64,000 bases of DNA, from positions 56,079 through 120,078 of the forward strand of contig CAMPBT010000003.1 of assembly GCA_946641515.1 (NCBI GenBank), given 5' to 3'. The notes beneath the pieces are model-generated. The model was not told where the DNA came from. It searched no databases and worked only from the letters and a program-made list of their open reading frames with translations. Below, piece by piece: positions 37,869-59,474 of this stretch (the stretch's first letter is position 1; each line of letters begins with the position of its first letter). The translations under genes were made by a program, and so were the position numbers. The DNA is from an uncultured Bacillales bacterium (lineage in GTDB: Bacteria; Bacillota_I; Bacilli_A; RFN20; CAG-449).

Positions 37869-38127
37869 TCATTATTAATTATAATTATTATATACGCATG
37901 AGCTACCCTCTATTAAGAGAGTAGCTTTTTTATACTCAATTCTATGTATATGTAGTGATTTACAAAAAAATAGAATGATTTTCACAAAAAACTTTCGAAA
38001 ATTTTCTTATTTTGAGAGGTATTTAAAAAGTTATCTCTATTTTTAAACATTTGTGTGACATTATGCACGAAAACGTTGCGAAATGCCTAAAAAAGGCCAC
38101 TTTATGCCAAAAAAATGTAATAAAATT

Positions 38128-38152
38128 TTTTTTAAAGACGTTTCGTGCCAAA
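38128..38152 (+). promoter_or_regulatory. conserved TTTTTTAAAGnnTTTCGTGCCAAA box (copy 1) upstream of cassette 1
   Basis: TTTTTTAAAGACGTTTCGTGCCAAA. Related ATGCCAAAAAAATG at 38102-38117. The same box recurs at 49165-49190, 49391-49410, 50763-50841 and, inverted, at 52641-52680. Confidence 0.5.
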
Positions 38153-38270
38153 TTTTTGGATACTTATGTAACGCCTCTACTTTTATATCCTTTTATTAAG
38201 TATGATAATCGAGGCTTTTGAAAAAAGGCACGCGAATAAAATCATTAGTATAAATAAAGGAGAAAGAAAT

Positions 38271-38765
38271 ATGAAGTTATTAAATAGAGTTACATTATTA
38301 TCAGTCTTAGGTATCTCAGCATTAGTAGGTACAGGTTACGCTGCATGGACATTCTCTGCATCAGCAGAAAACAAAACAGCAAACGCAGCACTCTTAATCA
38401 CAGATGCAAACACTGTTGGTGAAATCTCATTCAAAACAAATACAGCAAAATTCACTTTAGATCAATCAGGTATCACATGGGAAGGTGAAATCGTTGCAGA
38501 TTATTCTTCAGTTGGTTCAGAAGTTGAAGATCCATCAATTGAAAAATCATGGACAGCAGCAATTCCTGCAGAATTAGCAACATACGTTACATTCGTAGAT
38601 GCTTCAACAACAATCTCAGGCACATGGGAAGATGATGTTGCAATCGTTTTACCAGAACTCGTTTACACAGCAAACAAGCCAACAACAAAATCAGCTTACG
38701 ATACAATGGTTAGCTTAATCTCAGAATCAAATATCACATTCACATTCTCAGCAACAATTGCATAA
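38271..38765 (+). CDS. small exported TasA/camelysin-like protein with SipW-cognate-type signal peptide (paralog A1)
   Basis: ORF 38202..38765. Start preferred at ATG 38271, with AAAGGAGAAAG RBS. N-terminus MKLLNRVTLLSVLGISALVGTGYAAWTFSAS. C-terminus ...NITFTFSATIA. Paralogous to 50973..51503 and 53022..53507. Confidence 0.7.
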   Translation: MKLLNRVTLLSVLGISALVGTGYAAWTFSASAENKTANAALLITDANTVGEISFKTNTAKFTLDQSGITWEGEIVADYSSVGSEVEDPSIEKSWTAAIPAELATYVTFVDASTTISGTWEDDVAIVLPELVYTANKPTTKSAYDTMVSLISESNITFTFSATIA

Positions 38766-38865
38766 TATATTTAATTAACTTACATATATAATAAATCGGC
38801 CGTAGTTCAGAAATGCACTTCGGCCATTATCATAAATAATGGTTCAAAGAAAGGAGGTACCAGTT

Positions 38866-39801
38866 ATGAAAAAAATCAAAATGATCTTAACAGCATTAAT
38901 TGGTGCTCTATTTCTTGGAACAGCCGCTGCTACAGTAGCTACAACAGGATTTGCAGCATGGACATTCTCTTCAAATTCTTACAACACTCAATCAATCAGA
39001 GGTGCAATAAACGAATGGGAATTTGCTTCTTATGAAAGCATCTTTGAATTTGATGAAGAAACAGGAACTATCTTATACATCAAACAAATCATTGATGAAA
39101 ATGGAACAGTCACTGTACCAAATGAAATTAACGGTGTCCCAGTTACACATATTGACAAGTATGCATTTAGCAATCAGCCTAGTTTAACATCAATTGTTAT
39201 CGAAGCAGAAAACTTAACAATTGAAAGCTATGCTTTCTATGGTGACTACAACTTAAAAGAAATCACTTTACCTTCTTCAACAAAATTACTCAAATATTCA
39301 TTTGCTAATTCAGGATCATATAACTCAGATACAAAGACATATTCAATTGACAGCGTTACATTCACAGGAAGCGCTACTGAATTAACAGGTAACCAAGTAT
39401 TCAAAGGATTAGAAATTAACACAATTACAATCCCTGCAATCGTTACTAACGTTGAAAAATCATTCTTCGATGGTGTTGAAGATTACGAAATGATCAATTA
39501 CGGTGGATCTGTTGAAGACTTCGTTGGTACAGATCATAACAACGATACATATTCAATCTTTGAAGGTTTAGTTTATAACTTACGTAATAGAAATGCTGGT
39601 ACATATGCTTACCAAGCTCCAACAGCATTAACAATCTCTGGCAGAGTATTCTACTTAAATCAAAGCAACTTTACACAGAACTTATTACATTACTACGCAG
39701 AAGATGGTTCATATATTGTATATAACTTTAACAATCGTGTTAAGGTTAGCGGCAGCACATACGATAACTCAAATTGCTACTATTATTACATTGCAGAATA
39801 A
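38866..39801 (+). CDS. exported BspA-type leucine-rich-repeat (LRR_5-like) protein with SipW-cognate-type signal peptide (paralog B1)
   Basis: ORF 38839..39801. Start preferred at ATG 38866, with AAAGGAGG RBS. N-terminus MKKIKMILTALIGALFLGTAAATVATTGFAAWTFSS. LRR_5-like repeats (VTVPNEINGVPVTHIDKYAFSNQPSLTSIVI...). Terminator at 39802-39840. Confidence 0.65.
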   Translation: MKKIKMILTALIGALFLGTAAATVATTGFAAWTFSSNSYNTQSIRGAINEWEFASYESIFEFDEETGTILYIKQIIDENGTVTVPNEINGVPVTHIDKYAFSNQPSLTSIVIEAENLTIESYAFYGDYNLKEITLPSSTKLLKYSFANSGSYNSDTKTYSIDSVTFTGSATELTGNQVFKGLEINTITIPAIVTNVEKSFFDGVEDYEMINYGGSVEDFVGTDHNNDTYSIFEGLVYNLRNRNAGTYAYQAPTALTISGRVFYLNQSNFTQNLLHYYAEDGSYIVYNFNNRVKVSGSTYDNSNCYYYYIAE

Positions 39802-40019
39802 AATGCAAAACGGCTCAATGAGCCGTTTTCTTTTGCATTAAGCACAAATTACAATTACATTTATATAAATCTCTTAAATAGGCTTAAACTAATAAATAAC
39901 AAGCATTCACAGTTTAATAATAATATTAAAAATTACAAAGAACATATTTCTCTTTGGCATATTTTTTACATCTAAATAAAGTAAATCGAGTAGGGAGTAA
40001 AATTAGATAATTTCCTCTC

Positions 40020-40560
40020 CCTCTCACACCACGTAACGTGCCGTTCGGCATTACGCGGTTCAACTTACTTTTAAAGTATGCCTTGACATACTTTCCGCTT
40101 CTTCTCCTTTCCGCTTCTAAGATTTATTTCCTACGTATTGGATATTCTTTGAGATACGCTCATACCTTTTCCTGTCGGATATACCTTAGAAACATACATT
40201 TGTTAAAGCGATGTAAATTGTTTGGTCCTTCCTCTACTGAGTACTATGACCTCTGCTGACTTCCTATAGTTCGCTTTTCTAGGATTTCTCCTCTATAGGA
40301 CCTCACGGGATAAGTTATATATCTTTCCTCGTTTACCTACCTAATTTACGGATTAAGATTACGTTTGCCTTTTGGACTTTATTGCTTTTGGTCAACTTGT
40401 CCACTTAATTCGCCTTGATATTAGGTTTCTATTCGTTAGGCCACGATTTCGCTATCCCTTCTTTTCATGCGTAGTTACCTAGAGGCACTTTGGGAGTCGC
40501 TATCGGGTTGGTCGGCAAATACCTCTCTTCGGACTTTCATCGTAGATATATGACATGCCC
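40020..40560 (-). ncRNA. ORF-free, strand-asymmetric (purine-rich on minus strand) structured region; candidate large ncRNA of unassigned class
   Basis: About 540 nt with no credible ORF; the 73-aa frame at 40038..40259 is low-complexity. Multiple local hairpins, e.g. CGTAATGCCGAACGGCACGTTACG and GAAAGTATGTCAAGGCATACTTT. Bounded by the LRR-gene terminator at 39802-39840 and the rpsR terminator at 40566-40600. Strand assignment is tentative. Confidence 0.3.
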
Positions 40561-40565
40561 GTCAT

Positions 40566-40600
40566 ACCAAAAAAACCGTCCAATTAATGGACGGCTTAAT
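40566..40600 (-). terminator. intrinsic terminator of the rpsF-ssb-rpsR operon
   Basis: On the minus strand: GCCGTCCATTAATTGGACGG followed by TTTTTTT. Confidence 0.8.
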
Positions 40601-40620
40601 TTGCTTTTTGTTTTCCTTAA

Positions 40621-40848
40621 TTAGTCTTCTACGTAAGGAAGAAGTGCAACGAATCTTGCGTTTTTGATTGCTTGTTCGACTGCTCTCTGGTGCTTTGCAC
40701 AAGTACCAGTGACTCTTCTTGGAGAAATCTTTCCGTTTGGAGAGATGAATTTCTTTAATAATTCAACATCCTTATAGTCGATTTCCTGGTTTTTATTCTT
40801 ACAGAAGATACAAACCTTTTTTCTAGGTCTCATTTTCTTAAAAGCCAT
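40621..40848 (-). CDS. rpsR: 30S ribosomal protein S18
   Basis: ORF 40621..40872. Start probably at [13 protein letters not shown].... Conserved CxFC and RRVTG...KHQR motifs. Confidence 0.9.
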
Positions 40849-40901
40849 GCTATATCCTACCTTTCTTCTCACATTTGTGAGAGCATCAACATTTACCGTT
40901 A

Positions 40902-41351
40902 CTAGAATGGTAAATCGTCATCTGCGACATCGATAGAAGTTACGTTCTTTTTGCTTTCGTCTTCAGAAGGGATTGGATCTGGTTGGTAACCAAAATCTTG
41001 GTCTGGTTCAACAACAGAGTTTGCTGCACCATTTCTTCTTTCAAGACTATTAACGTTGTCACAAACAACTTCGATTACTTGGACCTTGCGGCCATCCTTA
41101 GAATCATAAGATCTCTGGTTTAATCTACCGTCGACTGCAACTAAAGAACCCTTGAAAGCATATTTTGTAATATAATCTGCTCTCTGTCCCCAAGCAGTAC
41201 ATGGAATGAAAGATGTTGTTCTTTCTTGATTGTCCTTGCTTGTTGGATTGTCAATAGCGACTGTGAAGGATGCGACTGACATGCCACTAGTTGTCTTTCT
41301 AAGTTCTGGATCTCTGGTCAAGCGACCTACTAAAACTACTCTGTTAATCAT
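40902..41351 (-). CDS. ssb: single-stranded DNA-binding protein
   Basis: 149 aa. [18 protein letters not shown]... OB-fold. Acidic C-terminal tail ending DDDLPF. Confidence 0.95.
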
Positions 41352-41380
41352 AACTGAATCTCCTTTATGCTATAGGAAAC

Positions 41381-41665
41381 TTATTTAGCTCTGACAAACT
41401 GACGTAATACTTGTGGATTTAATTTAGCAAGTCTGCTAAATTCATCAACTACTGCTGGTGATGCAACTGTAGCATCAACAACTACGTAATATCCTTTGAT
41501 TTCCTTGTTGATTTCGTATGCTAAATCTCTTAAACCCCATTCATTAACATTGTCAACAGTGCTGTTGTCTGCTGTTAATGCTTCGTTTAATTTTCCGATT
41601 AATGCGTTACGTGATGCATCATCAAGGTCAGCTTTTAAGATATACATAATTTCGTATTTTCTCAT
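41381..41665 (-). CDS. rpsF: 30S ribosomal protein S6
   Basis: 94 aa. MRKYEIMYIL... typical S6. Operon rpsF-ssb-rpsR. Confidence 0.93.
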   Translation of the reverse strand: MRKYEIMYILKADLDDASRNALIGKLNEALTADNSTVDNVNEWGLRDLAYEINKEIKGYYVVVDATVASPAVVDEFSRLAKLNPQVLRQFVRAK

Positions 41666-41860
41666 ATCTTTTACCTCCCTATGGTCTTATCTGGCTACTC
41701 CTAAATTAAAGTAGCAGAGAAGCTTTTGTCATGGGCCTTCACTCCCATTCTCTAATACTATAACTTAGTTATAGGAGGTTGTAAAGTAAAAATTGTCGAA
41801 CTTCTAATTCTCCTACACTAAATCTATACACAATTTTAAATAAAATCCCAAAAAATATTT

Positions 41861-43111
41861 TTATAACTTTTCTTTTCCTACTGCAATCATAAGTTTAATT
41901 CTATTTTCTTGATTGACTTTAGTTTGAGAAGGATCGTAATCAATTGCAACAATATTTGCTAAAGGATATTTATCCTTTAATTCTTTCATAACGCCTTTAC
42001 CACAAATATGGTTAGGTAAGCAACCGAATGGTTGAGCGCAGACAATGTTTTCATATCCAGTTTGAATTAATTCAACCATTTCTGCAGTTAATAAGAAACC
42101 TTCTCCCATCTTAACCGCGTGAGACAAAATTCCATTAGATAAATTGACTGTATGTTTAAAAGGCATCATCGGTGTAAAACTTGTATACTTTTCAATGGCT
42201 TTTATCATCAATTTTTCACGTTTTTCTAGGTATTTTATAAGTCCTTTGTAAATTAAATTTTTGATGGTAGAACCACCATAAATTTCTTTATCATACTGAG
42301 GAACATATAACGAATAATAAACAAAACCTAGAAGTCCTGGAACATTAACTTCGCATCCTTGTTCTACTAAAAATGTCTCTAAATTATTATTAGCAAGAGA
42401 AGCATATTTAACATAGATTTCTCCGACCACACCAACTTTAACTTTCTTTTCATTTGTAATTGGTAATTTATTAAATTCTTCACAAATATATCTATAATTT
42501 TTAGACATTTCACGTGCACCAATACCAGAACCATTTTTAAGTTTTTCTGCAAGAACTTTAGTTATTTTATTAACTAACTCTTCTGCAGAACCTTTTGTAA
42601 TTTCATAGCTTCTAGTCTTGTTGTAAAGATACATAATTAAGTCGCCATAAAAAACCGCTACACCTAATTTTGTTGCCATTTTTAAGTCAAGTTTAAAACC
42701 AGAATGTTCAAGTCCTTGCATAGAAACTGAAATAACAGGAACATGGCCAAATCCCGCTTTTTTTAACGCTTTTCTAAGTAAATAGATATAGTTAGATGCT
42801 CTACATCCTCCACCAGTTTGAGTAAGAATCAAAGCAACTTTTGAAGTATCTTCCATATGCTCTAAAGCATCAATAAATTGACCAATAACTAAAGTAGCAG
42901 GATAACAAGTATCATTATGAACATACTTAAGACCTACTTGAGCAACACCTTCAAAATTATCACAAACTTTGCATTTATATCCTGCTTGAACAAGGACTTC
43001 CTTCATAAGTTTCATATGAACATCAAGCATAGAAGGAATTAAGATTGTATAGTCTTTAACCATCTCTTTAGTAAAGACAGGATAATCAATTACTTTATTA
43101 TTTCTTTTCAT
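41861..43111 (-). CDS. 2-hydroxyacyl-CoA dehydratase family protein (HgdB/D-component-like)
   Basis: 416 aa. Overall resemblance to dehydratase beta/D-component proteins (Cys residues C...C...GGGC, conserved GxxG pockets). Overlaps the upstream fusion gene by 14 nt, as expected for an operon partner. Confidence 0.5.
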   Translation of the reverse strand: MKRNNKVIDYPVFTKEMVKDYTILIPSMLDVHMKLMKEVLVQAGYKCKVCDNFEGVAQVGLKYVHNDTCYPATLVIGQFIDALEHMEDTSKVALILTQTGGGCRASNYIYLLRKALKKAGFGHVPVISVSMQGLEHSGFKLDLKMATKLGVAVFYGDLIMYLYNKTRSYEITKGSAEELVNKITKVLAEKLKNGSGIGAREMSKNYRYICEEFNKLPITNEKKVKVGVVGEIYVKYASLANNNLETFLVEQGCEVNVPGLLGFVYYSLYVPQYDKEIYGGSTIKNLIYKGLIKYLEKREKLMIKAIEKYTSFTPMMPFKHTVNLSNGILSHAVKMGEGFLLTAEMVELIQTGYENIVCAQPFGCLPNHICGKGVMKELKDKYPLANIVAIDYDPSQTKVNQENRIKLMIAVGKEKL

Positions 43112-46013
43112 TTTTATCCTCCTTTTCTAAAGCAGCGAATAAAGATCTTAATCTAATCTTAACTGCACCTAAGTTAGTAATTTCATCAATCTTGATTTGA
43201 GTATAAATCTTGTTTTTAGCTTCTAAGATTTCTTTAACTTCATCAGTAGTAATAGCGTCAAGTCCACATCCGAAAGAAACAAGTTGAACAAGTTCCATAT
43301 TCTTTTTAGTACTTACATAGTTTGCAGCATTATATAGTCTTGCGTGATATGTCCACTGATTAAGAACATGACGAGGAAGCTTTTCAACTCTATTTGATAA
43401 AGAAGATTCAGTAATAACTGCTTTATCAAATCCTGCGATCAATTTATCAATACCATGATTAATTAATGGATCAACGTGATAAGGTCTACCACATAAAACA
43501 ACAATACGTTTTCCGCTTTTTTCCGCTTCTTCAATAATCTCTTCACCTTTACGACGAATATCGCTTAAATATGAAGAATATTCTGCGTAAGCTTTATCAA
43601 CTGCATTAAGAATATCTTTTTTCTTTAACGTACTATCAAACTTACGAAGAATAGGGACTATTCTCTTCTTAAAATATGGTTCATTATGTATACCAACATA
43701 ATCAAAGACATAATTAACATCTTGAAGTCTCATCACATTGTTATGCAATTGTTCTGGATAATACGCAACAACTGGACAGTTATAATGATTATCAGAAATC
43801 TTTTCATCAATATTATATGACATACCAGGATAGAAAATATTTGTATAACCTTCATTTAACAATTTTTCAATGTGACCATGAGCAAGTTTTGCGGGGAAAC
43901 ATTCAGTATCTGAAGGAATTGTATGTTGACCTGATGAATATAATTTTTCATTAGAAAAACCAGAATTATGAACTTCAAAACCAAGTTCAGTAAGTAATGT
44001 AAACCAGAAAGGATATAACTCATACATATTTAAACAAAGAGGAATACCAATCTTTGCTCTTTTGCCGTGTACTGGTTCATAAGAAGCAATTTTTTGTCTT
44101 ATATATTCATATAAGTTTAATGAATTATCTTGAGCTTTCTTAGTAAGAGGTCTTTCACATCTATTACCTGAAATATATCTATTTTTGTTATTAAAGACAT
44201 TAATAGATAAATCGCAGTGGTTATTGCATAATCCACATTTAGTATTAATAATCTTATGCTCAAAATTTTTAATTTCTTCTGCACTTAAAATATTAGATTT
44301 TTCTAATTCTAAATCTTTAGCATATAATGCAGCACCATACGCTCCCATTAAGCCAGCAATATTTGGTCTAATTACTTCTTTACCAAGCATCTGTTCAAAA
44401 GATCTTAAAACCGCTTCGTTATAGAAAGTACCGCCTTGAACAACGATATGATCACCTAACTTAGCAGTAGAAGTAACTCTAATAACTTTGTATAAAGCAT
44501 TTTTAACAACAGACATTGCTAAACCTGCAGAAATATTATCAATAGTCGCGCCATCTTTTTGAGCCTGTTTAACAGAGGAATTCATAAAAACGGTACATCT
44601 AGAGCCTAAATCTACCGGTTTTTTAGCAAGTAATCCAATACGAGCAAATTCACTGACATCATAACCAAGTGCATTTGCAAATGTCTGTAAGAAAGAACCG
44701 CATCCAGACGAGCATGCTTCATTTAAGAAGATGTTAGTAGTAATTCCGTGTTCAACTTTAAAACACTTAATATCTTGTCCACCGATATCAATAATAAAAT
44801 CTACATCTTTTTGGAAATGTTTCGCAGCTTCTAAATGTGCCATAGTTTCAACTAGCCCACCATCAAGTTGGAAAGCATTTTTAATTAAATCTTCACCATA
44901 TCCTGTTGAAGCGGCACCTTTAATTAATAAATCAGGTTTTAAATCATACATCTCAGTTAAGATGTCTTTTAACATCACAACTGGATTACCTTTATTAGGT
45001 AAATATTTAGTAAAACGAATATTTAAATCTTCATCAATTAAGCAAACTTTAATAGTAGTAGAGCCAGAATCAATACCTAAATAGAATGGTCCGTTATAAG
45101 AATCATCTAAAGGTAAAGTATTTACATACGCTTTAGCGTGTCTTTCTCTAAATTCTTTTAATTCTTCTTCATTATTAAATAATGGAGATAATGATTTGTA
45201 ATGACCTTTAGATTCATGATGTTCAATCTTATAAATTAAATCATCAATAGTCATCTCGCCATTTGCACTTAATGCTGCACCCATTGCAACATAATAAAGT
45301 GAATTAGGAGGACAAATACCTTTACATTTTAAAGTTTCATCAAAGCTCTTTTGAAGTTCACTCATAAATGTTAAAGGTCCACCTAAATAAACAATCTTAC
45401 CTTGAATATCTCTTCCTTGAGCAAGTCCACCAATAGTTTGATTAACTACAGCTTTAAAAATAGATGCTGCAATATCTTTTTTATCTGCACCTTGGTTAAG
45501 TAAAGGTTGAATATCAGTTTTAGCAAAAACACCACATCTAGAAGCAATGTTATAGATTTTGCCGTGTTCTTTAGCAATGTCATTTAAATCTTCAATTGAA
45601 ATATTAAGTAAGGTAGACATTTGGTCAATAAAAGCACCAGTACCACCTGCACAAGATCCATTCATTCTAACTTCAAGTCCATTAGATAAGAATAAAATTT
45701 TCGCGTCTTCCCCGCCAAGTTCAATGACACAGTCTGTACCTGGAATAAACTTATTCACTGCAACTCTAGTTGCATATACTTCTTGAACAAAATCAATGCC
45801 TAAATCTTCACAAAGTCCCATACCTGCAGAGCCAGAAATAGCAACATGTAATTCTGAATCACCTAACTTATTTTTAATATCTTTTAATATCTCTAAAAGA
45901 TTCTCTTTGATATGAGAATAATGTCTTTTATAAATATCATATTTAATATTCGTATTATCATCAAAAACAATTGCTTTAATTGTAGTTGAACCAATATCAA
46001 GTCCTAGTCTCAT
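43098..46013 (-). CDS. acyl-CoA dehydratase activase-related fusion protein: two BadF/BadG/BcrA/BcrD (HgdC-like) ATPase domains plus a C-terminal dehydratase-component-like domain
   Basis: ORF 43098..46031. Start preferred at MRLGLDIGSTTIKA (46013). A second actin-fold start motif YLGIDSGSTTIKVCL lies about 320 aa later. Cys cluster KCGLCNNHCDLS...GNRCERP. C-terminal half HgdB-like. Confidence 0.6.
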   Translation of the reverse strand: MRLGLDIGSTTIKAIVFDDNTNIKYDIYKRHYSHIKENLLEILKDIKNKLGDSELHVAISGSAGMGLCEDLGIDFVQEVYATRVAVNKFIPGTDCVIELGGEDAKILFLSNGLEVRMNGSCAGGTGAFIDQMSTLLNISIEDLNDIAKEHGKIYNIASRCGVFAKTDIQPLLNQGADKKDIAASIFKAVVNQTIGGLAQGRDIQGKIVYLGGPLTFMSELQKSFDETLKCKGICPPNSLYYVAMGAALSANGEMTIDDLIYKIEHHESKGHYKSLSPLFNNEEELKEFRERHAKAYVNTLPLDDSYNGPFYLGIDSGSTTIKVCLIDEDLNIRFTKYLPNKGNPVVMLKDILTEMYDLKPDLLIKGAASTGYGEDLIKNAFQLDGGLVETMAHLEAAKHFQKDVDFIIDIGGQDIKCFKVEHGITTNIFLNEACSSGCGSFLQTFANALGYDVSEFARIGLLAKKPVDLGSRCTVFMNSSVKQAQKDGATIDNISAGLAMSVVKNALYKVIRVTSTAKLGDHIVVQGGTFYNEAVLRSFEQMLGKEVIRPNIAGLMGAYGAALYAKDLELEKSNILSAEEIKNFEHKIINTKCGLCNNHCDLSINVFNNKNRYISGNRCERPLTKKAQDNSLNLYEYIRQKIASYEPVHGKRAKIGIPLCLNMYELYPFWFTLLTELGFEVHNSGFSNEKLYSSGQHTIPSDTECFPAKLAHGHIEKLLNEGYTNIFYPGMSYNIDEKISDNHYNCPVVAYYPEQLHNNVMRLQDVNYVFDYVGIHNEPYFKKRIVPILRKFDSTLKKKDILNAVDKAYAEYSSYLSDIRRKGEEIIEEAEKSGKRIVVLCGRPYHVDPLINHGIDKLIAGFDKAVITESSLSNRVEKLPRHVLNQWTYHARLYNAANYVSTKKNMELVQLVSFGCGLDAITTDEVKEILEAKNKIYTQIKIDEITNLGAVKIRLRSLFAALEKEDKNEKK

Positions 46014-46230
46014 TATAATACCCCGCTTCATTAAAAATTATAGGAGGGTATTTATTAAAAATAAATAAAATCCAAAATTTAAAAATTTTTTGTTATTATT
46101 TTCAAGTTGTTAATAGGCACTTTTAGAAAAAGTGTCTATTTACTTTGTTATATAAATAGATTAAAACTACTATTTACAAAAATTATTAAAATTTTAAATT
46201 GGTTTCATTATAATAAAGGCAGGTTAACAT

Positions 46231-47016
46231 ATGAGAAAACAAAAAACTGTTTATTACAAAGATGAAATTAATGATGATTTTGCAGGCACAAATATCATCA
46301 CTCAACCTCTACGAGAAGATTATCATTATGTCCATAAAGGTTTTGTATGGAACTTTTTTGCATTTATCTTCTATTGGATAATTGCTTTCCCATTAGTATT
46401 CCTAATCCAAAAGCTTTGGACACATCAAAAAATTGTTAATAAAAAAGTTTTAAAAGAAGCAAGAAAGAAAAAGACGGGATATTTTATTTATTGTAACCAT
46501 ACTCAGTTATTCTCAGATGCAGTTACTCCTGCTTTAATTGCTGCTCCTCATAAAGCATATGTCACTGCTCATCCAGACTGTGTCTCCATTCCACTAGTAA
46601 AAGTACTCGTAGAATGGGCAGGAGGGCTTCCATTAAGTTCTACATTCAAAGGAATGAAAAATATGTATCGAGCGATGGATTACCGCCTAAAACATAAAAA
46701 CGTTATTACTATTTTTCCAGAAGCTCATATCTGGCCTTATTATAATAAAATTAGACCATTTATCGATTCTTCATTTGCCTACCCTGTCAAATTCAACGTA
46801 CCAGTATACGCAGTAACTACTACTTATTACAAAAAGAAATATTTTATTAAGCCAAGAATTAAAACATTCGTAGACGGACCTTTCTATCCAGACCCTTCTT
46901 TATCTCCAGTAGAAGCTAGAGAAAAGTTAAGAGATCAAGTATATAACGTTATGTGTGAACGTGCGGAAAAATATTCCACATATGAATATGTTAAATACGT
47001 AAAAAAAGAAGATTAG
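46231..47016 (+). CDS. lysophospholipid acyltransferase-like (PlsC-family) protein
   Basis: 261 aa. N-terminal TM. NHTQLFSD (HX4-5D-like) and FPEAHIW (FPEGTR-like) motifs. Confidence 0.45.
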   Translation: MRKQKTVYYKDEINDDFAGTNIITQPLREDYHYVHKGFVWNFFAFIFYWIIAFPLVFLIQKLWTHQKIVNKKVLKEARKKKTGYFIYCNHTQLFSDAVTPALIAAPHKAYVTAHPDCVSIPLVKVLVEWAGGLPLSSTFKGMKNMYRAMDYRLKHKNVITIFPEAHIWPYYNKIRPFIDSSFAYPVKFNVPVYAVTTTYYKKKYFIKPRIKTFVDGPFYPDPSLSPVEAREKLRDQVYNVMCERAEKYSTYEYVKYVKKED

Positions 47017-47044
47017 AAAATCACTAATCTTCTTATTTTTTTGC

Positions 47045-48208
47045 CTATTTTTGATATAAATCAATAGCCTTTTTTAGTCTAGATAAAGCATCAATAACAT
47101 TACTTCTTTGAGTAGCAAGATTCATTCTCAAGAAAGATAATCCACCTTCTCCATATTCTTCTCCATCAGATAAATATAAACCTGTAGTATCTAAAATATA
47201 ATCTCTTAATTTAGTACCATTTGGTTCAACATTAGAAACATCTATCCAAAGTAAATACAAAGCATCTGATTCAATAACTTTTAAAGAAGGAATTTCTTTG
47301 TTAATGTAATCTCTAACATAATCTTTATTTGCAAAGACATATTCTCTTAATTCATCAATCCATTCTTCACCTTTATAGAACGCTAGTTGAGGAGCTATTG
47401 TTGCAAGAGTATTAGCTTCTGCACATTCATCAGTATTTAATCCTCTTTCAAATTTATGTTTTAAATATGGATTTGGAATAACCGCCATAGAGGTTTGAAT
47501 TCCCGCGATATTAAAGCATTTTGTAGGTGCAATTAATGTTAATGAATTATTTAAATTAGTTTCAGAAACTGATGCAAAAGGAATATAAGATTTTCCAGGT
47601 CTAGTTAAATCACCATGAACTTCATCAGAAATAACTACAACATTATATTTTTTACATAATTCACCAATTCTAATTAATTCTTCTTTAGTCCAAATCTTAC
47701 CAATTGGATTATGAGGATTACAGAAAATTAAAGCAGAAGTTTCTTCTAACGCTAATTTATTTTCTAAATCGGCCCAATCAACTTCATAAATTCCATCTTT
47801 ATATAAAAGTTTATTTTGTAATGGTTTTCTTCCATTATTAACAATTGAATTAAAGAATATATTATAGACCGGAGTCATAACCACAACATTATTTGCCACT
47901 TCAGTCAATCTTCTAACAGCAGAAGAAATAGAAGGAATAACACCTGTAGAAAAAACCATCCATTCTTTTTTTATTTCAAAATGATAACGTTTATTCCACC
48001 AATAGATATAAGATTCAAACATTGAAGGAGGAAGAATATTATATCCGTAAATACCTTGATTAATTCTTTCTTTAAATCCTTCAATAATTTCAGGAGCAGT
48101 CTCAAAATCCATATCTGCAATCCACATAGGAAGGACATTGTCCTTAACATCCCATTTAACCGAGTATGTATTACGTCTATTAGTAGGTTTATCAAAGTTA
48201 TATTTCAT
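47045..48208 (-). CDS. PLP-dependent C-S lyase (MalY/PatB-family cystathionine beta-lyase-like aminotransferase)
   Basis: 387 aa. Aminotransferase class I/II fold with the PatB/MalY N-terminus (KYNFDKPTNRRNTYSVKWD). Confidence 0.75.
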   Translation of the reverse strand: MKYNFDKPTNRRNTYSVKWDVKDNVLPMWIADMDFETAPEIIEGFKERINQGIYGYNILPPSMFESYIYWWNKRYHFEIKKEWMVFSTGVIPSISSAVRRLTEVANNVVVMTPVYNIFFNSIVNNGRKPLQNKLLYKDGIYEVDWADLENKLALEETSALIFCNPHNPIGKIWTKEELIRIGELCKKYNVVVISDEVHGDLTRPGKSYIPFASVSETNLNNSLTLIAPTKCFNIAGIQTSMAVIPNPYLKHKFERGLNTDECAEANTLATIAPQLAFYKGEEWIDELREYVFANKDYVRDYINKEIPSLKVIESDALYLLWIDVSNVEPNGTKLRDYILDTTGLYLSDGEEYGEGGLSFLRMNLATQRSNVIDALSRLKKAIDLYQK

Positions 48209-48213
48209 ATTAT

Positions 48214-49053
48214 TTACCCCTTAATAATAATTTCAGTTTTAGATGGATCAATTTCATTCTTATCCATAATTAATTCATCAATACCTTCACATACTAGTCT
48301 ACCAGAAATAATGTTCTTAACAGAATCAATACGAGAATTAATTTCACAATTAATTGTAGAATATTCAAATGCCAAGTTTGTATTTTCTAATTTACAATTC
48401 TCCATAACTAAGTTTTCCATATAACAGAAACCTTGTTCACTTTCGATTGTACAGTTAACTAATTTAACATTTTTAGAGTTCCAACCAAAATATTCACCTC
48501 TAATAACAGAATCGTAAACTTCAACATTTTCACAATTCCAAAATGAATCTTTTGAATTTAAGATAGAGTTTTTAACAACAATGTTCTTACCTCCATCAAG
48601 AATATAATTGCCATCTAAAATTAAGTTTTCAATTACTACGTCAGAAGAATCTTTTAATAAGTAATCCCCTTTAGCTTTAACATTCTTCATATTAATATGA
48701 TCACATGACCATAAAGTTTCTTTAGCATCCAAGAATTCAGTATCTTCAATAGTTATAAATGATGCTCTTCTAAATTCTTTAGGAGCTTCTACTAAGCAAT
48801 TCTTTAATTTAATGTTCTTTGTATACCAAATACCAGATCTAGACATAACTTTAAAAGTAGAATTATTAACTTCAAAGTTTTCTCCATACCATAAAGGATA
48901 TTTCCATTCAAACGATGAATTGTTTATAACAACATTCTTACTTTCTTTTAATGGAGATTCTCCATCTTTGAAAGTAGAATTATTAATAACTAAATCACGA
49001 GATTTAAAAAGTGCTCTTTCACCTGTAAAAGTACCATTTTCTAAAATTTTCAT
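48214..49053 (-). CDS. right-handed parallel beta-helix repeat protein (DUF3737-like)
   Basis: 279 aa of repeated about 22-aa units (VxNNSTF / NxxLxN...). 5 nt separate it from the patB-like gene, so likely co-transcribed. Confidence 0.5.
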   Translation of the reverse strand: MKILENGTFTGERALFKSRDLVINNSTFKDGESPLKESKNVVINNSSFEWKYPLWYGENFEVNNSTFKVMSRSGIWYTKNIKLKNCLVEAPKEFRRASFITIEDTEFLDAKETLWSCDHINMKNVKAKGDYLLKDSSDVVIENLILDGNYILDGGKNIVVKNSILNSKDSFWNCENVEVYDSVIRGEYFGWNSKNVKLVNCTIESEQGFCYMENLVMENCKLENTNLAFEYSTINCEINSRIDSVKNIISGRLVCEGIDELIMDKNEIDPSKTEIIIKG

Positions 49054-49164
49054 AATTAAACCTCCATGTAAGACTAATATAATTATAAATAATTATTAAT
49101 TTTTATTCGTGACATTATCACATTATATATTGTGTTTAATATCAATTTAAATTTTAAAAATTAT

Positions 49165-49190
49165 TATTTTTTTAAAGTTTTCGTGCCTAT
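49165..49190 (+). promoter_or_regulatory. conserved TTTTTTTAAAGTTTTCGTGCC box (copy 2) upstream of the SipW-like gene
   Basis: Near-identical to 38128-38150. A second related site ATCGTGCAATTTGTGCCACAATG lies at 49391-49413. Confidence 0.45.
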
Positions 49191-49464
49191 TTTGATAATA
49201 TTTCACATTTATAATCAATAGTTTTGCTATTTTTATTGCAGACAAAAGTATTTTTCGGCTATTTACATTAATTTTATCGGTATTTATTATTGTTTTAATA
49301 TATTGTATCTATATTATATCATTTATATATATACGTACGCGCACGCGCATTGATAGATGTTATCTCAAAAAAAGTGCTTTTGTGTATCAAATCGTGCAAT
49401 TTGTGCCACAATGTTTAAAATTATATAATATTAATGTAAAAATATAGATGTAAGGAGGGATATT

Positions 49465-50499
49465 ATGACCACTTTTGCAACAGTAATTGTATTAATTATA
49501 TTGTCATTAATTATTTTCGCCTTTATTGGCGTTGCGTTATATTCTATTTTTAAATCAGAAAAAATTATTGTAAGTAGAAAAGAACGTGACCAGTTGATAA
49601 TTAAAGAACAGCAAAAAGAAAAGAAACCATCTAAAGCATCTAAAACTACTTCAATAGTATTTACAATCATTGGATATGTCATTGTATTTGGAATCTTAAT
49701 CTTTGAAGGATTTGCAGTTATTACTAATTCATCAAATAACTTATTGTTCATCGGAAACAATGCAAATTTAGTAGTAGCATCAGATTCTATGTCTACTATT
49801 GATAGTTCCGCTCAATTAGAAGCAAATGGTGGTTATTTGACAGACGATATGTTAAATGACCAATTCCAGATTGGAGATATTCTCTCTTTCTCAAAATTAC
49901 CATCTACAGAAAAAGAATTATTATCTTATACAGAAACCGGAGAACTAGAATATGTTGATGAATTAAATAAAAAAGTCAATTCTCCATATTTATATAAAGT
50001 ATTCGCATTCAAATACACTTTACCTGAAAAAGGTGAATCAATCGTATTACATAGACTTGTAGAAATTAGAGAAGTCTCTACTGCAAGTGGATCAACATAT
50101 CAATATGTTTTCATAGGAGATAAATATCCAAAATCAAGCCAAGTAGTAACTTATAAGAGTTTACTAGGTATTTATACTAGAGGAAGAATATCAGGGCTCG
50201 GATATCCAATTTTATTCTTAGGATCTGCTTATGGAGCCTACTCAGTTCTTGGAGCGTTATTCATTATTATCGCGACATCATACTTTACTAAAAAATTATC
50301 TAAGCTCTATTCAGATAGATATGACCAAATCAAAAAAGAAAAATTCGATACAGAATTCTCTTCAGACACATTTAAGAATCGTAGGCATGAAGTAGAAGAA
50401 AAAGTAATCGAAGCTGAAGAAGTTAAAGTCATCCCAAAAGATCATCAATCTCAAGAAGATGATAATTCAGATATTGGAAGTCTAAAGAAGAGAGATTAA
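49465..50499 (+). CDS. candidate ER/archaeal-type (SipW-like, Ser/His) signal peptidase I with extended architecture
   Basis: 344 aa. N-terminal TM (FATVIVLIILSLIIFAFIGVALY). Box-B-like VVASDSMSTI (Ser). Box-D-like IVLHRLVEI (His, not Lys). GDK segment. C-terminal TM (ILFLGSAYGAYSVLGALFIIIATSYF), as in SipW. Sits between cassettes of SipW-cognate-signal proteins. RBS AAGGAGGG. Confidence 0.5.
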   Translation: MTTFATVIVLIILSLIIFAFIGVALYSIFKSEKIIVSRKERDQLIIKEQQKEKKPSKASKTTSIVFTIIGYVIVFGILIFEGFAVITNSSNNLLFIGNNANLVVASDSMSTIDSSAQLEANGGYLTDDMLNDQFQIGDILSFSKLPSTEKELLSYTETGELEYVDELNKKVNSPYLYKVFAFKYTLPEKGESIVLHRLVEIREVSTASGSTYQYVFIGDKYPKSSQVVTYKSLLGIYTRGRISGLGYPILFLGSAYGAYSVLGALFIIIATSYFTKKLSKLYSDRYDQIKKEKFDTEFSSDTFKNRRHEVEEKVIEAEEVKVIPKDHQSQEDDNSDIGSLKKRD

Positions 50500-50762
50500 G
50501 ACTCACTACCGTTCAAAATGGACGGTAGTTTTTTTATTATAAAATCACTTTGCAAATTACTTATAATCTGTAAAGTTACAAACGTTTATCCCAAAAAATG
50601 TTAAACTTTTAACCCTACATTTGTAACATTTTTGGTATAAAACTGAAAGTGTATCTCTCAATGGAGCATCAAGAAAAGAACATTTGTTCCTTTCTTTGAT
50701 TTTCGAGTCAAATTTTTACTATTTTAAAAAGGAACATTTTAACATATTTCGTTTAAAATCTT

Positions 50763-50841
50763 GTCGTTTTGTGCCAAATATTAGTTACATTGTGCCAGTG
50801 TTTGAATAATTTTATGTTAAATTGGTCGTTTTGTGCCAAAT
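50763..50841 (+). promoter_or_regulatory. three CGTGCCA-family boxes (GTCGTTTTGTGCCAAAT x2 plus TTGTGCCAGTG) upstream of cassette 2
   Basis: GTCGTTTTGTGCCAAAT at 50763-50779 and 50825-50841. ACATTGTGCCAGTG at 50787-50800. Confidence 0.5.
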
Positions 50842-50972
50842 TTAGAAATTCCTATGAAAATTGCCTTTTTATAGCCTAAATCTATTATATGATGAAGGTG
50901 TCTTCAGGAGAGGAAGATAAAAACTAACCCATCTATTAAATGGATTAATTAAATAAAAGGAGAGTAATTATT

Positions 50973-51503
50973 ATGAAATTATTAAATAGAGTCACATTAG
51001 TATCAGTCTTAGGCGTAGCAGCTGTCATCGGTACAGGTTACGCTGCATGGACATTCTCAGCAGACACAACTGCAAACGCTAACGCAAATGTATTAATCAC
51101 ATCAGCATCAGAACAGGCAGGTACAATCACATTTGATAAAACTGTTAAATTAGTACTTGATCAAGGTTGGATTGGTTGGATTGATGCAGGAGTAGCTCCA
51201 AAAGATGCATACACTAACGAAGATGCACTTGCTTCAATCGTACCAACATTAACTCCATATGCAGGTTCTGAAACATTAGTAAGCGAATACGCATTAACTT
51301 GTTCAGTTAATTACGGCAATTTTACAAATTACTTAAACTTCGGTGCTTTCGCAACAACATGGGAATCAGGTTCAGCAGTTGCTTTACCAACAGTTTCTTG
51401 GAAAGATGGAATGAAGCCAACAACATTAACTGAATACAATACAATGAAAACTGCACTTCAAAATTTACAAATTGTCTTTACATTTAATGCAGACGTTGCT
51501 TAA
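50973..51503 (+). CDS. small exported TasA/camelysin-like protein with SipW-cognate-type signal peptide (paralog A2)
   Basis: 176 aa. MKLLNRVTLVSVLGVAAVIGTGYAAWTFSAD. C-terminus ...QIVFTFNADVA. The first about 100 nt are roughly 85% identical to 38271... at the DNA level. Confidence 0.7.
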   Translation: MKLLNRVTLVSVLGVAAVIGTGYAAWTFSADTTANANANVLITSASEQAGTITFDKTVKLVLDQGWIGWIDAGVAPKDAYTNEDALASIVPTLTPYAGSETLVSEYALTCSVNYGNFTNYLNFGAFATTWESGSAVALPTVSWKDGMKPTTLTEYNTMKTALQNLQIVFTFNADVA

Positions 51504-51640
51504 TTAGATTAAAAAAAATGGCCGTAGTTCCTAGTGAGCTTCGGCCATTATATAGATATAACCATAATAAATATATATAAGTTAAATATTTATAATTATA
51601 TTAAATAATAAAAACCTACCACTATGAAAGGAGGGCAAAT

Positions 51641-52489
51641 ATGAGAAAGCATAAATTTTTAACTTTCCTATTAGCGTACAGTATCCTTTTTAGTGGTGTA
51701 ATGCTTAGTAGTTACGCTACTAAAGGCTATGCAGCCTTTACTTTCAGCGCTGAATCAACTAGTATAAATCCTGTTCCAACAGTAGTAACAAATTGGACAT
51801 TCAACAATCAAGAGCCAGGAACAACTATTGTAATCGATGGAAATGGTAATGCTACAATTTCTGGTGGAGAGCATGATGGTGAATCAGTAGAAATTACATA
51901 CGTTACTGATGATGAAGGAAATAGTTTAATCAATAATGGTTCTGTAACAACACAAATTGAAATTAATGAAGACGGAACAGTTTCAATCACTCAATTTGAT
52001 GTCACACCTGGATCAGGTTCAATTGGAGACATCAATTATATCTTCTATGGTGAAACTTTATATTTACCAAGCCAATACGTTATTGATGGGCAAGTATATC
52101 CTGTTTCTTCATTAGATCAACCGCTTAAAGTTGAAAAAGCTAAACTTTTAATTGGCATTGCAGCAGTTAACAATGTAATTGTACCTGAAGGATATGTATC
52201 CTTATGTGCTGAAGCATTCTACGGTAACAATTGTTCTTTCAAAACTCCAGTAGCCTTTAATTTACCTTCAACATTAACAAGTATTGGATATCACGCAATT
52301 GATTTAGCAGATAGCCCTAAAATTAATTACGCAGGTACAAAAGCTCAATTTAGAGCATTATCAAATAACTCCGGTAACTGGGTAGGAAGATCAAGCGGAT
52401 CTAACAATACTATTACAGTAACTTGTTCAGACGGAAATTTAACTGTAAGATACAATAATAATAATAATGGTACAATAACTATTTCTTAA
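51641..52489 (+). CDS. exported BspA-type LRR (LRR_5-like) protein with SipW-cognate-type signal peptide (paralog B2)
   Basis: 282 aa. MRKHKFLTFLLAYSILFSGVMLSSYATKGYAAFTFSAE. LRR_5-like segment IVPEGYVSLCAEAFYGNNCSFKTPVAFNLPSTLTSIGYHAI. C-terminal INYAGT motif shared with B1 (INYGGS). Confidence 0.65.
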   Translation: MRKHKFLTFLLAYSILFSGVMLSSYATKGYAAFTFSAESTSINPVPTVVTNWTFNNQEPGTTIVIDGNGNATISGGEHDGESVEITYVTDDEGNSLINNGSVTTQIEINEDGTVSITQFDVTPGSGSIGDINYIFYGETLYLPSQYVIDGQVYPVSSLDQPLKVEKAKLLIGIAAVNNVIVPEGYVSLCAEAFYGNNCSFKTPVAFNLPSTLTSIGYHAIDLADSPKINYAGTKAQFRALSNNSGNWVGRSSGSNNTITVTCSDGNLTVRYNNNNNGTITIS

Positions 52490-52640
52490 TTCCCCTATTA
52501 ACAAATTGTAAACTCATCTATATAATAAAAGTGTAGATGAGTTTTTTTATTAAATAATTAAAAAGAGATAAATTGATAATTTTGTTAAAGAAAATAATAT
52601 TGAATATGATACATTCAATTCTTAATGATAAATATAAAGT

Positions 52641-52680
52641 TTGGCACGGATAGACATTTTTCTGGCACGGATGGGATTTC
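52641..52680 (-). promoter_or_regulatory. two inverted-orientation copies of the CGTGCCA box (TTTGGCACGG, TCTGGCACGG) upstream of cassette 3
   Basis: AAAGTTTGGCACGGATAGACATTTTTCTGGCACGGATGGG. Confidence 0.45.
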
Positions 52681-53021
52681 CATTTGTTACAATAAAGGAA
52701 AAATCGATTATAAATGTTACTCTAAATTTTCAAGTGATACATATGATAAATTTATCGATTGTGTTTCTTTGATACAAAGAGCTTTGTAAAGTAATGCATA
52801 TACAAATGTTACATTTTTAAAGAGATATTAAACAAATGTGTTTGTTAGTGTGCAAAATCAACATAGTTAATCGATAGCAAGTCTATCAGTTTAAAAAATA
52901 TCGATTTAAGTACTTGCCAAGTTTCGAATATTTGCTATATTGAGGGTGACCTGAGGGAAACCTAACACATCTAACCAAAAAATATGCTTATCGAAAATAA
53001 TAGAATAGGAAAGGAGATAGT

Positions 53022-53507
53022 ATGAAACTCACAGCAAAATTAAATTTAGTTAGCATTCTTGGTTTAACAGCTATTGTTGGTGTTGGCTACGCAGCGTTTA
53101 CTTTCAGTGACGACGCTACTATATCTTCTCTCTCACAAGCTCATATCACTCAAGTACAAGAATTCGGTGAAGTCGAAGTTACAAATACAAATCTTAACAT
53201 TGTATTAGATCAAAAAGAAATCACATGGACTGGTTCAGTCAAAGCAGTTAGAAAAGGTCAATGTGCTAACTTAGATACTACTAATACATGGACTGCTACA
53301 TTATCAGATAATTTAGCATACTACGTTAGATTTGCAGGTGATGCATCTACTTATACAAACGTTGTTTGGGAAGATAACGTTGAAATTTCTCTTCCTAAAC
53401 TTGAATATGTTGAAGAACATAAACCAACAACATTATCACAATATAATGTAATGACAAGTGTTCTTGCAGGCGAAATGGTTAATTTCTCATTCACTGCAGC
53501 AAAATAA
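53022..53507 (+). CDS. small exported TasA/camelysin-like protein with SipW-cognate-type signal peptide (paralog A3, singleton)
   Basis: 161 aa. MKLTAKLNLVSILGLTAIVGVGYAAFTFSDD. C-terminus ...VNFSFTAAK. Shares the internal HKPTTLSQYNVM motif with A1 (KPTTKSAYDTM) and A2 (KPTTLTEYNTM). Confidence 0.7.
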   Translation: MKLTAKLNLVSILGLTAIVGVGYAAFTFSDDATISSLSQAHITQVQEFGEVEVTNTNLNIVLDQKEITWTGSVKAVRKGQCANLDTTNTWTATLSDNLAYYVRFAGDASTYTNVVWEDNVEISLPKLEYVEEHKPTTLSQYNVMTSVLAGEMVNFSFTAAK

Positions 53508-53599
53508 ATTTAGTTATTAGTAATTTGATAAAAATTACTCTCCAATAACAGCTCCTCTCTCTCCAATTCGAGGGGCTTTATTTTTGTCTAAAAAGCATC

Positions 53600-53637
53600 A
53601 AAAAAGTTTCCCAAAGGAAACTCTTTTTTTATTTTTA
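53600..53637. terminator. bidirectional intrinsic terminator
   Basis: AAAAAGTTTCCCAAAGGAAACTCTTTTTTTATTTTT. Serves cassette 3 on the plus strand and the BI-1-like gene on the minus strand. Confidence 0.8.
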
Positions 53638-53640
53638 CAA

Positions 53641-58391: not shown

Positions 58392-58864
58392 TTTTCTTTT
58401 TTATCTTTTAAAACAAAGTAATTTGCACATGAGGCAACAAGTAAGAATAACGCAATTATTCCAATAAATAAATATGAAGAATAATCTACAAAAACAAATT
58501 CTTTTCCTTTTGCCATAGCTTTAAATAAAGCTTTAAAGAAAACACCTAATGTATAAAAACTACATAATGAAGTAGATGTAATACTTGCAAGAACTGAAGC
58601 ATATCTATATGCTTCTTTTTTAGTTAATAAGATGTAAAGCTCATAGCCAAAATATGAAACAACAATTAATCCCACTAATAACATAATTAAGTAATTGTTA
58701 TCTGCAACGAACTCTTTTCCGTCCGCACCATAATCTTCAACTGATGCACTTTTAATATACTTAACTAAGCCAAGGACAAAGACAAATATTCCTGATGCTA
58801 AGAATGATAAGTTTTTAATAAGTTTACTTAATTTCACTGACAGCTTCCCCCTCTCTATATTCAT
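58388..58864 (-). CDS. hypothetical small membrane protein
   Basis: ORF 58388..58879. Four hydrophobic helices. Overlaps the thiT 3' end, so the call and start are uncertain. Confidence 0.35.
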   Translation of the reverse strand: MNIERGKLSVKLSKLIKNLSFLASGIFVFVLGLVKYIKSASVEDYGADGKEFVADNNYLIMLLVGLIVVSYFGYELYILLTKKEAYRYASVLASITSTSLCSFYTLGVFFKALFKAMAKGKEFVFVDYSSYLFIGIIALFLLVASCANYFVLKDKKEN

Positions 58865-59474
58865 AGTCTTCTTCAACAATAAAGAATTGTGGATACTTAA
58901 TTACAACAGGAATCATAACAATTAAGCATAAGACAATAGATGGACCAGTATAAGAAATGTTATAGACAAATGAATATAAGTATTTGCCTCCAACAAAGCC
59001 TTCAGGGCAAGATGAACCCCAGAAGATAACACCTGCTAAATAGTGGCAGACAAACTTGAGTAATCCACCAAGTACTGTACCAATACTTACCCAAGCAATC
59101 TTTTCTTTATCAGTTTTTGCGTTCTTAAATGGCTTAAAGAATAAACCTGCAGCAGCAACAACTGGATAAGCTAAAATATAATCTAATAAAATTTGGAACA
59201 TGACTTTATACCATGTGTCAGCAATGGCATAAACTCCTCCAAGCATTTGTAAGAAACTGAGAATAAATCCAGATATAAAACCCGCTACAAAGCCCCTTCT
59301 ATAACATAGAATTAAGATTGGTAGCATAGCAAGTCCGATAGATCCTCCGTTTAAAAATACCCCTCTCCATAGACCACCTTGTAAGAAGTCTAAAGCAAAG
59401 GCAATCGCGGTAAAGATAGCAATTTCAACAATACCTTTAACGCTTAAAACATTGTTTTTTCTTTTCTCTCCCAT
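58824..59474 (-). CDS. thiT: ECF-transporter thiamine-specific S component ThiT
   Basis: 216 aa. Similar to L. lactis ThiT (VEIAIFTAIAFALD..., ILCYRRGFVAGFISG, HYLAGVIFWGS). Preceded by a TPP riboswitch. Confidence 0.75.
   Translation of the reverse strand: MGEKRKNNVLSVKGIVEIAIFTAIAFALDFLQGGLWRGVFLNGGSIGLAMLPILILCYRRGFVAGFISGFILSFLQMLGGVYAIADTWYKVMFQILLDYILAYPVVAAAGLFFKPFKNAKTDKEKIAWVSIGTVLGGLLKFVCHYLAGVIFWGSSCPEGFVGGKYLYSFVYNISYTGPSIVLCLIVMIPVVIKYPQFFIVEEDYEYREGEAVSEIK

Follow-up and report, generated by a model that had tools for sequence, protein, structure and literature searches.

A divergent SipW-type signal peptidase and its putative cognate substrates, including leucine-rich repeat proteins, in an uncultured Bacillales bacterium

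Do exported proteins that share a signal motif, and that are encoded around a signal peptidase, depend on that peptidase for their maturation, and do they assemble outside the cell? The question is raised by a locus in a 64,000-nt stretch of the genome of an uncultured Bacillales bacterium (GCA_946641515.1, contig CAMPBT010000003.1, positions 56,079 to 120,078, forward strand; hereafter, the window). Three small proteins (A1, A2, and A3) and two larger ones (B1 and B2) encoded there carry the same motif at the end of their signal peptides, and a peptidase of the type found in the endoplasmic reticulum (ER) is encoded among them (Table 1). The database entries of these exact proteins, where named by a source, read "hypothetical". 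A preliminary interpretation, made from the letters of the DNA and referred to below as the sequence-only reading, had proposed a secreted fibre system with a dedicated peptidase. Our analysis identifies the peptidase as a divergent member of the SipW/ER type and finds its linkage to motif-bearing genes conserved in distant lineages, which lends good support to the idea of a dedicated peptidase and its cognate substrates; the assembly of the substrates into fibres is discussed below as a putative later step.

The peptidase

The open reading frame (ORF) at 49465..50499, in which the sequence-only reading had seen a candidate Ser/His signal peptidase of the ER type, carries the motifs VVASDSMS, HRLV, and GD, which are shared by close and distant homologues in the form VV[AY]SDSMS, HR[LI]V, and GD. 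A family profile searched against 1.84 billion cluster representatives retrieved 1,229 clusters at E<=0.001 and 188 at E<=1e-30. In 72 diverse members sampled from this profile-identified family, Ser108, Met109, His196, Arg197, Gly218, and Asp219 are invariant (72/72). The NCBIfam model NF046067, "signal peptidase I SipW", and the archaeal-type model TIGR02228 match 66 of the 72 relatives (best values, 2.3e-17 and 3.6e-16, respectively), as opposed to 9 of the 72 for the bacterial P-type signal peptidase model and none of the 72 for Pfam S24/S26. No PDB sequence match to the family profile was found. When the family alignment (A5) was compared by hhalign with human SEC11A, an S26B peptidase whose query sequence was checked residue by residue against chain A of 7P2P, the two aligned with a probability of 96.4% (E 1.1e-9, 102 columns); a smaller alignment of 7 sequences gave 91%. 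The resulting register pairs Ser108 with Ser56 (box B), His196-Arg197 with His96-Arg97 (box D), and, in the Gly-Asp of box E, Asp219 with Asp116, and also aligns an F-x-x-GD hairpin (box C). Judged from these profile and alignment matches, the product of the gene is a real, very divergent SipW/ER-type (S26B) signal peptidase, and the proposal of the sequence-only reading is borne out on this point.

SipW is a short protein like SEC11A, with one transmembrane (TM) segment at each end. The window protein is longer than either and differs from both: a further TM segment stands at its N-terminus, box B is followed by an insertion, and the charged cytoplasmic tail has ~70 residues. Its layout comprises TM1 (residues ~5-28), a K/R-rich loop, TM2 (~63-85), an ecto-domain, TM3 (~250-275), and the charged tail. 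Because of the K/R-rich loop and the charged C-terminal tail, the positive-inside rule would place the catalytic domain outside the cell.

The signal motif shared by five proteins

All five plus-strand ORFs listed by the sequence-only reading do carry the common motif G-x-G-[YF]-A-A-[WF]-T-F-S, in the variants GTGYAAWTFS (A1 and A2), GVGYAAFTFS (A3), TTGFAAWTFS (B1), and TKGYAAFTFS (B2). A regular-expression scan of all six frames of the window found the motif nowhere else. The expected number of chance occurrences, given the composition of the window, is 5.6e-6, and the five copies are therefore due to paralogy and not to chance. Among homologues, most codon differences within the motif are synonymous (as in GGT ACA GGT TAC GCT GCA TGG versus GGC ACG GGC TAT GCC GCT TGG), so the constraint acts on the protein and not on the DNA. 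This rules out that the 5' ends are conserved as DNA or kept alike by gene conversion.

Each of the five signals has the typical Sec layout, with a short K/R-containing n-region and a hydrophobic stretch of ~16 residues followed by the motif. By inspection, the motif can be read as a cleavage region, G-[YF]-A/A-[WF]-T-F-S (here and below, a slash marks the cut), with small residues at -3/-1 and aromatic residues at P2 and P2'. After the predicted cut, the mature A- and B-type proteins would begin with [AT]-[WF]-[TQ]-[FY]-[SNAG], and a short hydrophobic strand follows 10-15 residues on. Type IV pilin (class III) signals are ruled out, since the motif stands after the hydrophobic stretch and not before it, and no pilus machinery was seen among the called neighbouring genes. 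The proteins are not bacterial lipoproteins, as the five signal peptides contain no Cys.

The sequence-only reading had likened these signals to those of TasA and camelysin, the cognate substrates of SipW. The likeness holds for the arrangement aromatic-Ala/Ala-aromatic, which is that of the TasA site. It does not extend to the hidden Markov models, as no protein tested was matched by an NCBIfam model of a SipW-cognate signal or exported family, TIGR04088 included. The motif could serve to find further SipW-dependent substrates that are missed by TIGR04088-90.

Linkage of the peptidase and the motif in other lineages

Every peptidase homologue for which flanking DNA was obtained has motif-bearing neighbour genes. 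Scans of genomes and of metagenomes, each with a single exact peptide pattern, yielded two loci and one locus, respectively. The comparison covered six further lineages of Bacilli and Christensenellaceae, with GC contents of 30-51% and peptidases 26-59% identical to that of the window, and in all of them motif genes adjoin the peptidase gene. The closest (L004/L005, 59% identical) is syntenic and has the same gene order, with motif genes for a 179-aa protein (GTGFAAWTF), a 279-aa protein with a weak LRR_5 match (TKGYAAWTF), and a 163-aa protein (GVGFAAWTF). In L001/L002 (31% identical; GC, 51%), a 185-aa protein, VGTGYAAWTFNA ... IKFTFSAAPTVA, is encoded directly upstream. In Caryophanales bacterium UBA4951 (L008; 30% identical), a gene for a 177-aa small protein lies upstream and three genes for leucine-rich repeat (LRR) proteins lie downstream (384, 511, and 686 aa, with GVGYATWTY, SIGFSAWTY, and GVGYAAWTY, respectively). 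A Christensenellaceae metagenome-assembled genome (MAG; L009; 28% identical) has a small protein (GGVYATWTF ... VTLTFSAE) upstream and a 328-aa protein (GGAFATWQF) downstream, and L006 (32% identical over 58% of the query; GC, 42%) has the end of a small-type gene upstream and a GGVSAAWTY protein downstream. In L010/L011/L019 (26% identical), genes of two protein families that carry S[ST]GFAAWV[IL]S lie before the peptidase gene. The presence of motif genes beside the peptidase in six other, distant lineages bears out the view of the sequence-only reading that the motif behaves as the cognate signal of this peptidase.

Small proteins and their wider families

The small proteins A1, A2, and A3 are 31-39% identical to each other and have predicted mature lengths of ~137-152 aa. 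The C-terminal F-x-F-x-A strand that the sequence-only reading had noticed in them is present and is kept in homologues; in a 13-member alignment (A6), F159 and A161 of the strand do not vary. Searches of Pfam, NCBIfam, and the PDB sequences gave no match to the small proteins. When they were compared by hhalign with TasA, or with TasA and three Bacillus TasA-family proteins, the signal peptide alone was aligned (10% and 6%), and removal of the signal peptide reduced the probability of a match to the TasA family to 0.2%.

A first AlphaFold2 (AF2) model of a small protein, built from 8 sequences, had a predicted local distance difference test (pLDDT) score of 52, and a second one, built from 55 sequences, had a score of 61.8 overall and ~72 for residues 51-164. 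The predicted core (residues 51-164) is a beta-sandwich of about nine beta-strands with one helix (140-152) and a final strand (156-163). Residues 1-50, made up of the signal and the start of the mature protein, have a pLDDT below 50, and the first 25 residues of the mature part show no structure in the model. No link to the TasA/camelysin family (Pfam PF12389) was detected by family models, profiles, or fold, so membership of the small proteins in that family, as suggested by the sequence-only reading, is not supported, and a remote relationship is possible given the quality of the model.

A search with the small-protein profile retrieved 431 proteins, most of which belong to two paralogous families, K (starting MAKLTRKSYKRKKIAFAAVILGGVALVSSGFAAWVLS) and N (starting MNKFKKKTRSKMIAASIAILSSAAVVSTGFAAWVISGG), from MAGs of Bacilli/Firmicutes. 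The two families are homologous to each other (97.6% probability). The K and N proteins (P0011-P0125) are 230-290 aa long and come from gut-type Bacilli MAGs, and their genes always stand in the order N, K, SipW-like peptidase (L010, L011, and L019). Their first 40 residues are 96-97% identical and the remainder ~45%, a contrast that is partly an artefact of the word-based collection of candidates. Beyond the signal, homology of K and N to the small proteins of the window type was not established, as hhalign gave 10% over the C-terminal 76 columns (helix and last strand).

In the K/N lineage (L010, 2806-5921; L011, 9680-12795; L019, 7834-10949), the peptidase gene is always followed, with overlapping stop and start codons, by two genes and then by an ABC transporter. 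The first encodes a 607-aa protein with many TM segments and a P-loop (GLSGTGKSS) and the second a 429-aa protein with CxxC pairs; neither has a Pfam match. In the A1 cluster, P0305 and P0307 are short A1-protein fragments that bear the JGI name "flagellar basal body-associated protein FliL", a name that is probably spurious and due to the N-terminal hydrophobic segment. P0063, in which a K-family protein continues in frame into part of TM2 of the peptidase, is likely an assembly or frameshift artefact.

Larger proteins

The sequence-only reading assigned BspA-type LRR domains to both larger proteins. For B1 the assignment holds, as the protein matches Pfam LRR_5 (PF13306) at 4.5e-15 (56.1 bits; cut-off, 27.7). 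For B2 the Pfam scan gave no direct LRR match, and the support is indirect: B2 is 41% identical to an orthologue with a precomputed weak LRR_5 match and can be aligned with the LRR region of a relative (E 5e-7). The likeness between A- and B-type proteins is confined to the N-terminal module, within which conservation runs ~30 residues into the mature part. B2 is the single member of its 90%-identity cluster, compared with 30 members for the peptidase and 36 for A2, which suggests that B2 varies strongly between strains.

Comparison with known systems

As in the tapA-sipW-tasA operon of B. subtilis and the sipW-tasA/calY locus of B. cereus, an ER-type Ser/His peptidase is encoded here beside its putative substrates. 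In the fibre structure 8AUR, mature TasA begins at Ala28, which sets the SipW cut at ...GGGTWA/AFND, and plasmid-borne Bacillus TasA-family proteins read GGGTYAYFSD. The cleavage regions TWA/AF of TasA and G[YF]A/A[WF] of the window proteins thus follow the same order of small residue, aromatic residue, Ala/Ala, and aromatic residue. In TasA, cleavage by the P-type peptidase LepB is hindered by the P2 Trp and the P2' Phe, and the enzyme dedicated to this substrate is SipW (PMC10269814). The donor strand of TasA consists of residues 28-38, directly after the cut, and is common to TapA (PMC9674648); TasA and TapA share their first mature residues, as the A and B types do here. The systems differ in their subunits, as TasA is a jellyroll of 233 aa and those of the window are ~140 aa long with no detectable sequence or fold likeness to TasA, and in the accessory protein, which is TapA in B. 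subtilis and an LRR adhesin here.

A similar combination of SipW, small matrix subunits, and a larger adhesion-type protein is found in the sipW-bsaA-bsaB-bsaC locus of C. perfringens, where the larger protein, BsaC, has a vWA domain in place of the LRRs seen here. SipW is the presumed processing enzyme for the signal peptides of BsaA-C (PMC11580942). Remote homology to TasA can still be recognised in BsaA and BsaB, which have isopeptide locks; in the window proteins, neither homology nor a motif of this kind was found. Among the filaments of the TasA superfamily in archaea and bacteria, the AbpA, AbpX, Tafi, and 0406 threads likewise consist of small subunits with a neighbouring dedicated peptidase of the TIGR02228 type. 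Mature AbpX is 163 aa long, the peptidase of such a system can be structurally unusual, and predicted tip/adhesin and minor components are encoded in the locus (bioRxiv 10.64898/2026.01.04.697558).

The sequence-only reading did not recognise the system as a described one, and no paper describing it was found in the literature searched. That view is fair for these protein families and has to be narrowed for the general design, which is known from TasA, BsaA-C, and AbpA/AbpX/Tafi. The locus is distinct in its unannotated subunits with no detectable likeness to TasA, its LRR passengers, and its large, separate peptidase subfamily outside Pfam. Archaeal-type dedicated peptidases with self-assembling matrix proteins (TasA, BsaA, AbpA/AbpX, and Tafi) are emerging as a general route to biofilm fibres, and the present locus carries the dedicated-peptidase design into gut-type Bacillota that are uncultured and low in GC. 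With it comes a peptidase subfamily of >1,200 clusters, of which no sampled member matches Pfam, together with unannotated substrate families and LRR adhesins as passengers. The cleavage motif, the catalytic residues, and the candidate donor strand are targets for studying how such bacteria attach to hosts or to each other.

Proposed mechanism and alternative explanations

The explanation that we favour, and consider fairly probable, combines a dedicated SipW-type (S26B) peptidase with five cognate substrates, of which the small subunits would form an assembly that the LRR proteins join. An ordinary n-h-c signal peptide would direct the substrates to export by Sec. The aromatic residues that G-[YF]-A/A-[WF]-T-F-S puts at P2 and P2' are those which, in TasA, block the P-type peptidase and make SipW necessary; here, the membrane peptidase, whose catalytic domain would lie between TM2 and TM3 on the outer side of the membrane, would cut after G-[YF]-A and release all mature substrates with the start A-[WF]-T-F-S. 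The three small proteins would be the main building blocks of an assembly at the surface or outside the cell. In it, the conserved N-terminus of the mature protein could serve as the donor strand and pair with the conserved strand at the C-terminus of the neighbouring small subunit, yielding a fibre. The two larger proteins, with LRR domains behind the same N-terminal module, would join the assembly or be displayed by it as an adhesive tip or accessory component. The identity of the peptidase, the motif, which is under selection, and the conserved linkage of the two are shown. We infer, with good support, Sec export and a cut after G-[YF]-A by this peptidase, and we also infer its exclusive role; with weaker support, a donor-strand fibre with LRR proteins attached through the same strand may follow.

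Several observations weigh against this explanation. The window peptidase itself has no Pfam or NCBIfam match (S24/S26, NF046067, and TIGR02228; none at E<=1). SEC11A works in a multi-subunit complex with Asp122 as the acid of its catalytic triad, Asp116 being salt-bridged to Arg97 (bioRxiv 10.1101/2020.11.11.378711); the column equivalent to Asp122 holds Asp in 68 of the 72 relatives, N or Q in the subclade nearest to the window protein, and Ser224 in the window protein, whose activity may accordingly be altered. As regards a separate housekeeping signal peptidase, the analysis covered the 64-kb window. The only other exported protein seen in the window is a lipoprotein (8034-9791), which leaves synteny as the main support for the view that the motif is not generic. 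The AF2 model of the small protein, itself of moderate confidence, has only generic Ig-like fold matches, and no gene for an anchor, a chaperone, or a regulator is evident at the locus.

The identity of the peptidase and the conserved synteny would fit equally well if the locus provided a private secretion and maturation route for separate soluble or surface proteins that do not polymerise, the conserved A-W-T-F-S being just the P' side of the recognition site, and no donor-strand subunit was found to which the small proteins are linked by sequence or by fold. We regard this as rather unlikely, given that conservation reaches ~30 residues into the mature part and is common to the otherwise unrelated A and B types, that the last beta-strand is the most conserved mature element of the small proteins, and that the substrates of all characterised SipW-type systems are matrix or fibre proteins. 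It is improbable that the gene at 49465-50499 encodes the sole type I signal peptidase of the organism and that the motif is common simply because the five genes are nearby paralogues. The window holds no other candidate peptidase of the S-x-S-M type, and few peptidases are possible in Bacilli with reduced genomes, but adjacency to the substrates, kept across Christensenellaceae and several clades of Bacilli at 26-31% identity, would be unexpected for a housekeeping enzyme; the A- and B-type proteins have just the N-terminal module in common, and the relatives match the SipW and archaeal-type models far more often than the P-type model.

A signal-anchor that is never cleaved, next to a peptidase-like protein that is inactive or has another role, would agree with the missing triad Asp and with the K and N families, where such strong identity of the first 40 residues is unusual for a discarded signal peptide. 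We consider this highly improbable: Ser108, His196, and Arg197 are invariant even in the subclade that lacks the Asp, G at -3 and A at -1 fit the signal-peptidase rule, and the N-terminal conservation of K and N is inflated by the collection of candidates through exact words. Beyond the favoured explanation of peptidase, substrates, and assembly, it is conceivable, although we think it doubtful, that the locus represents a class of donor-strand filaments that depends on SipW, has so far gone unrecognised, and is widespread among uncultured Bacilli of the gut type as well as in some Clostridia. On that tentative proposal, the subunits would be unrelated or unrecognisably related to the TasA superfamily, the LRR adhesins would be attached through their N-terminal strand, and the K and N families would be further branches.

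Organization of the locus and other features of the window

Table 1. Features of the peptidase locus (window coordinates; a slash within a motif marks the predicted cut)
Feature	Position	Strand	Description	Evidence
Small subunit A1	38271..38765	+	164 aa; motif GTGYA/AWTFS at 38328-38357; C-terminal ITFTFSATIA; beta-rich core	
Larger protein B1	38866..39801	+	311 aa; motif TTGFA/AWTFS at 38941-38970; BspA-type LRR_5 domain	
Terminator-like hairpin	39807..39829	+	closes A1-B1 unit	
Signal peptidase	49465..50499	+	344 aa; divergent SipW/ER-type (S26B)	ORF and family profile
Ser108 codon	49786-49788	+	within peptidase gene	
His196-Arg197 codons	50050-50055	+	within peptidase gene	
Gly218-Asp219 codons	50116-50121	+	within peptidase gene	
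Terminator-like hairpin	50505..50529	+	directly 3' of peptidase gene	
Small subunit A2	50973..51503	+	176 aa; motif GTGYA/AWTFS at 51030-51059; C-terminal IVFTFNADVA	
Larger protein B2	51641..52489	+	282 aa; motif TKGYA/AFTFS at 51719-51748; degenerate LRR-like C-terminal part	
Terminator-like hairpin	52510..52544	+	closes A2-B2 unit	
Small subunit A3	53022..53507	+	161 aa; motif GVGYA/AFTFS at 53079-53108; C-terminal VNFSFTAAK	
Terminator-like hairpin	53605..53622	+	3' of A3	

Because terminator-like hairpins follow the genes that end at 39801, 50499, 52489, and 53507, the locus appears to consist of four units, namely A1-B1, the peptidase, A2-B2, and A3. The A1-B1 unit is split from the remaining units by ~9 kb of housekeeping genes on the opposite strand (rpsR-ssb-rpsF and others). 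No riboswitch or regulatory RNA was found upstream of the cassettes. The duplicated two-gene cassettes described by the sequence-only reading are seen in the repeated architecture, but their members are old paralogues, as A1 and A2 are 39% identical and B1 and B2 are alike only over the first ~85 residues.

The position of the first cassette is not conserved, judged from L004, the 59%-identity relative, whose locus ends there: in L004 (1-969) an acetyltransferase gene adjoins rpsR, at the place where the window (38271-40872) has the A1-B1 unit and an intron fragment. The fragment gives Rfam matches to group II intron domains D1-D4 on the minus strand (40225-40484; RF02001, 96.6 bits; RF01998, 46.9 bits) and is found a short way downstream of both rpsR and the terminator-like hairpin of that gene (40597-40573); the A1-B1 unit ends ~400 bp away. 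The stretch 39830-40620 has no ORF for an intron-encoded protein, which suggests a group II intron that is degenerate or lacks an ORF. Elsewhere in the window, a tmRNA gene lies at 853-1226 on the minus strand (127 bits), and a thiamine pyrophosphate (TPP) riboswitch at 59518-59628, also on the minus strand (60.9 bits), is located upstream of the gene for a small membrane protein (58824-59474).

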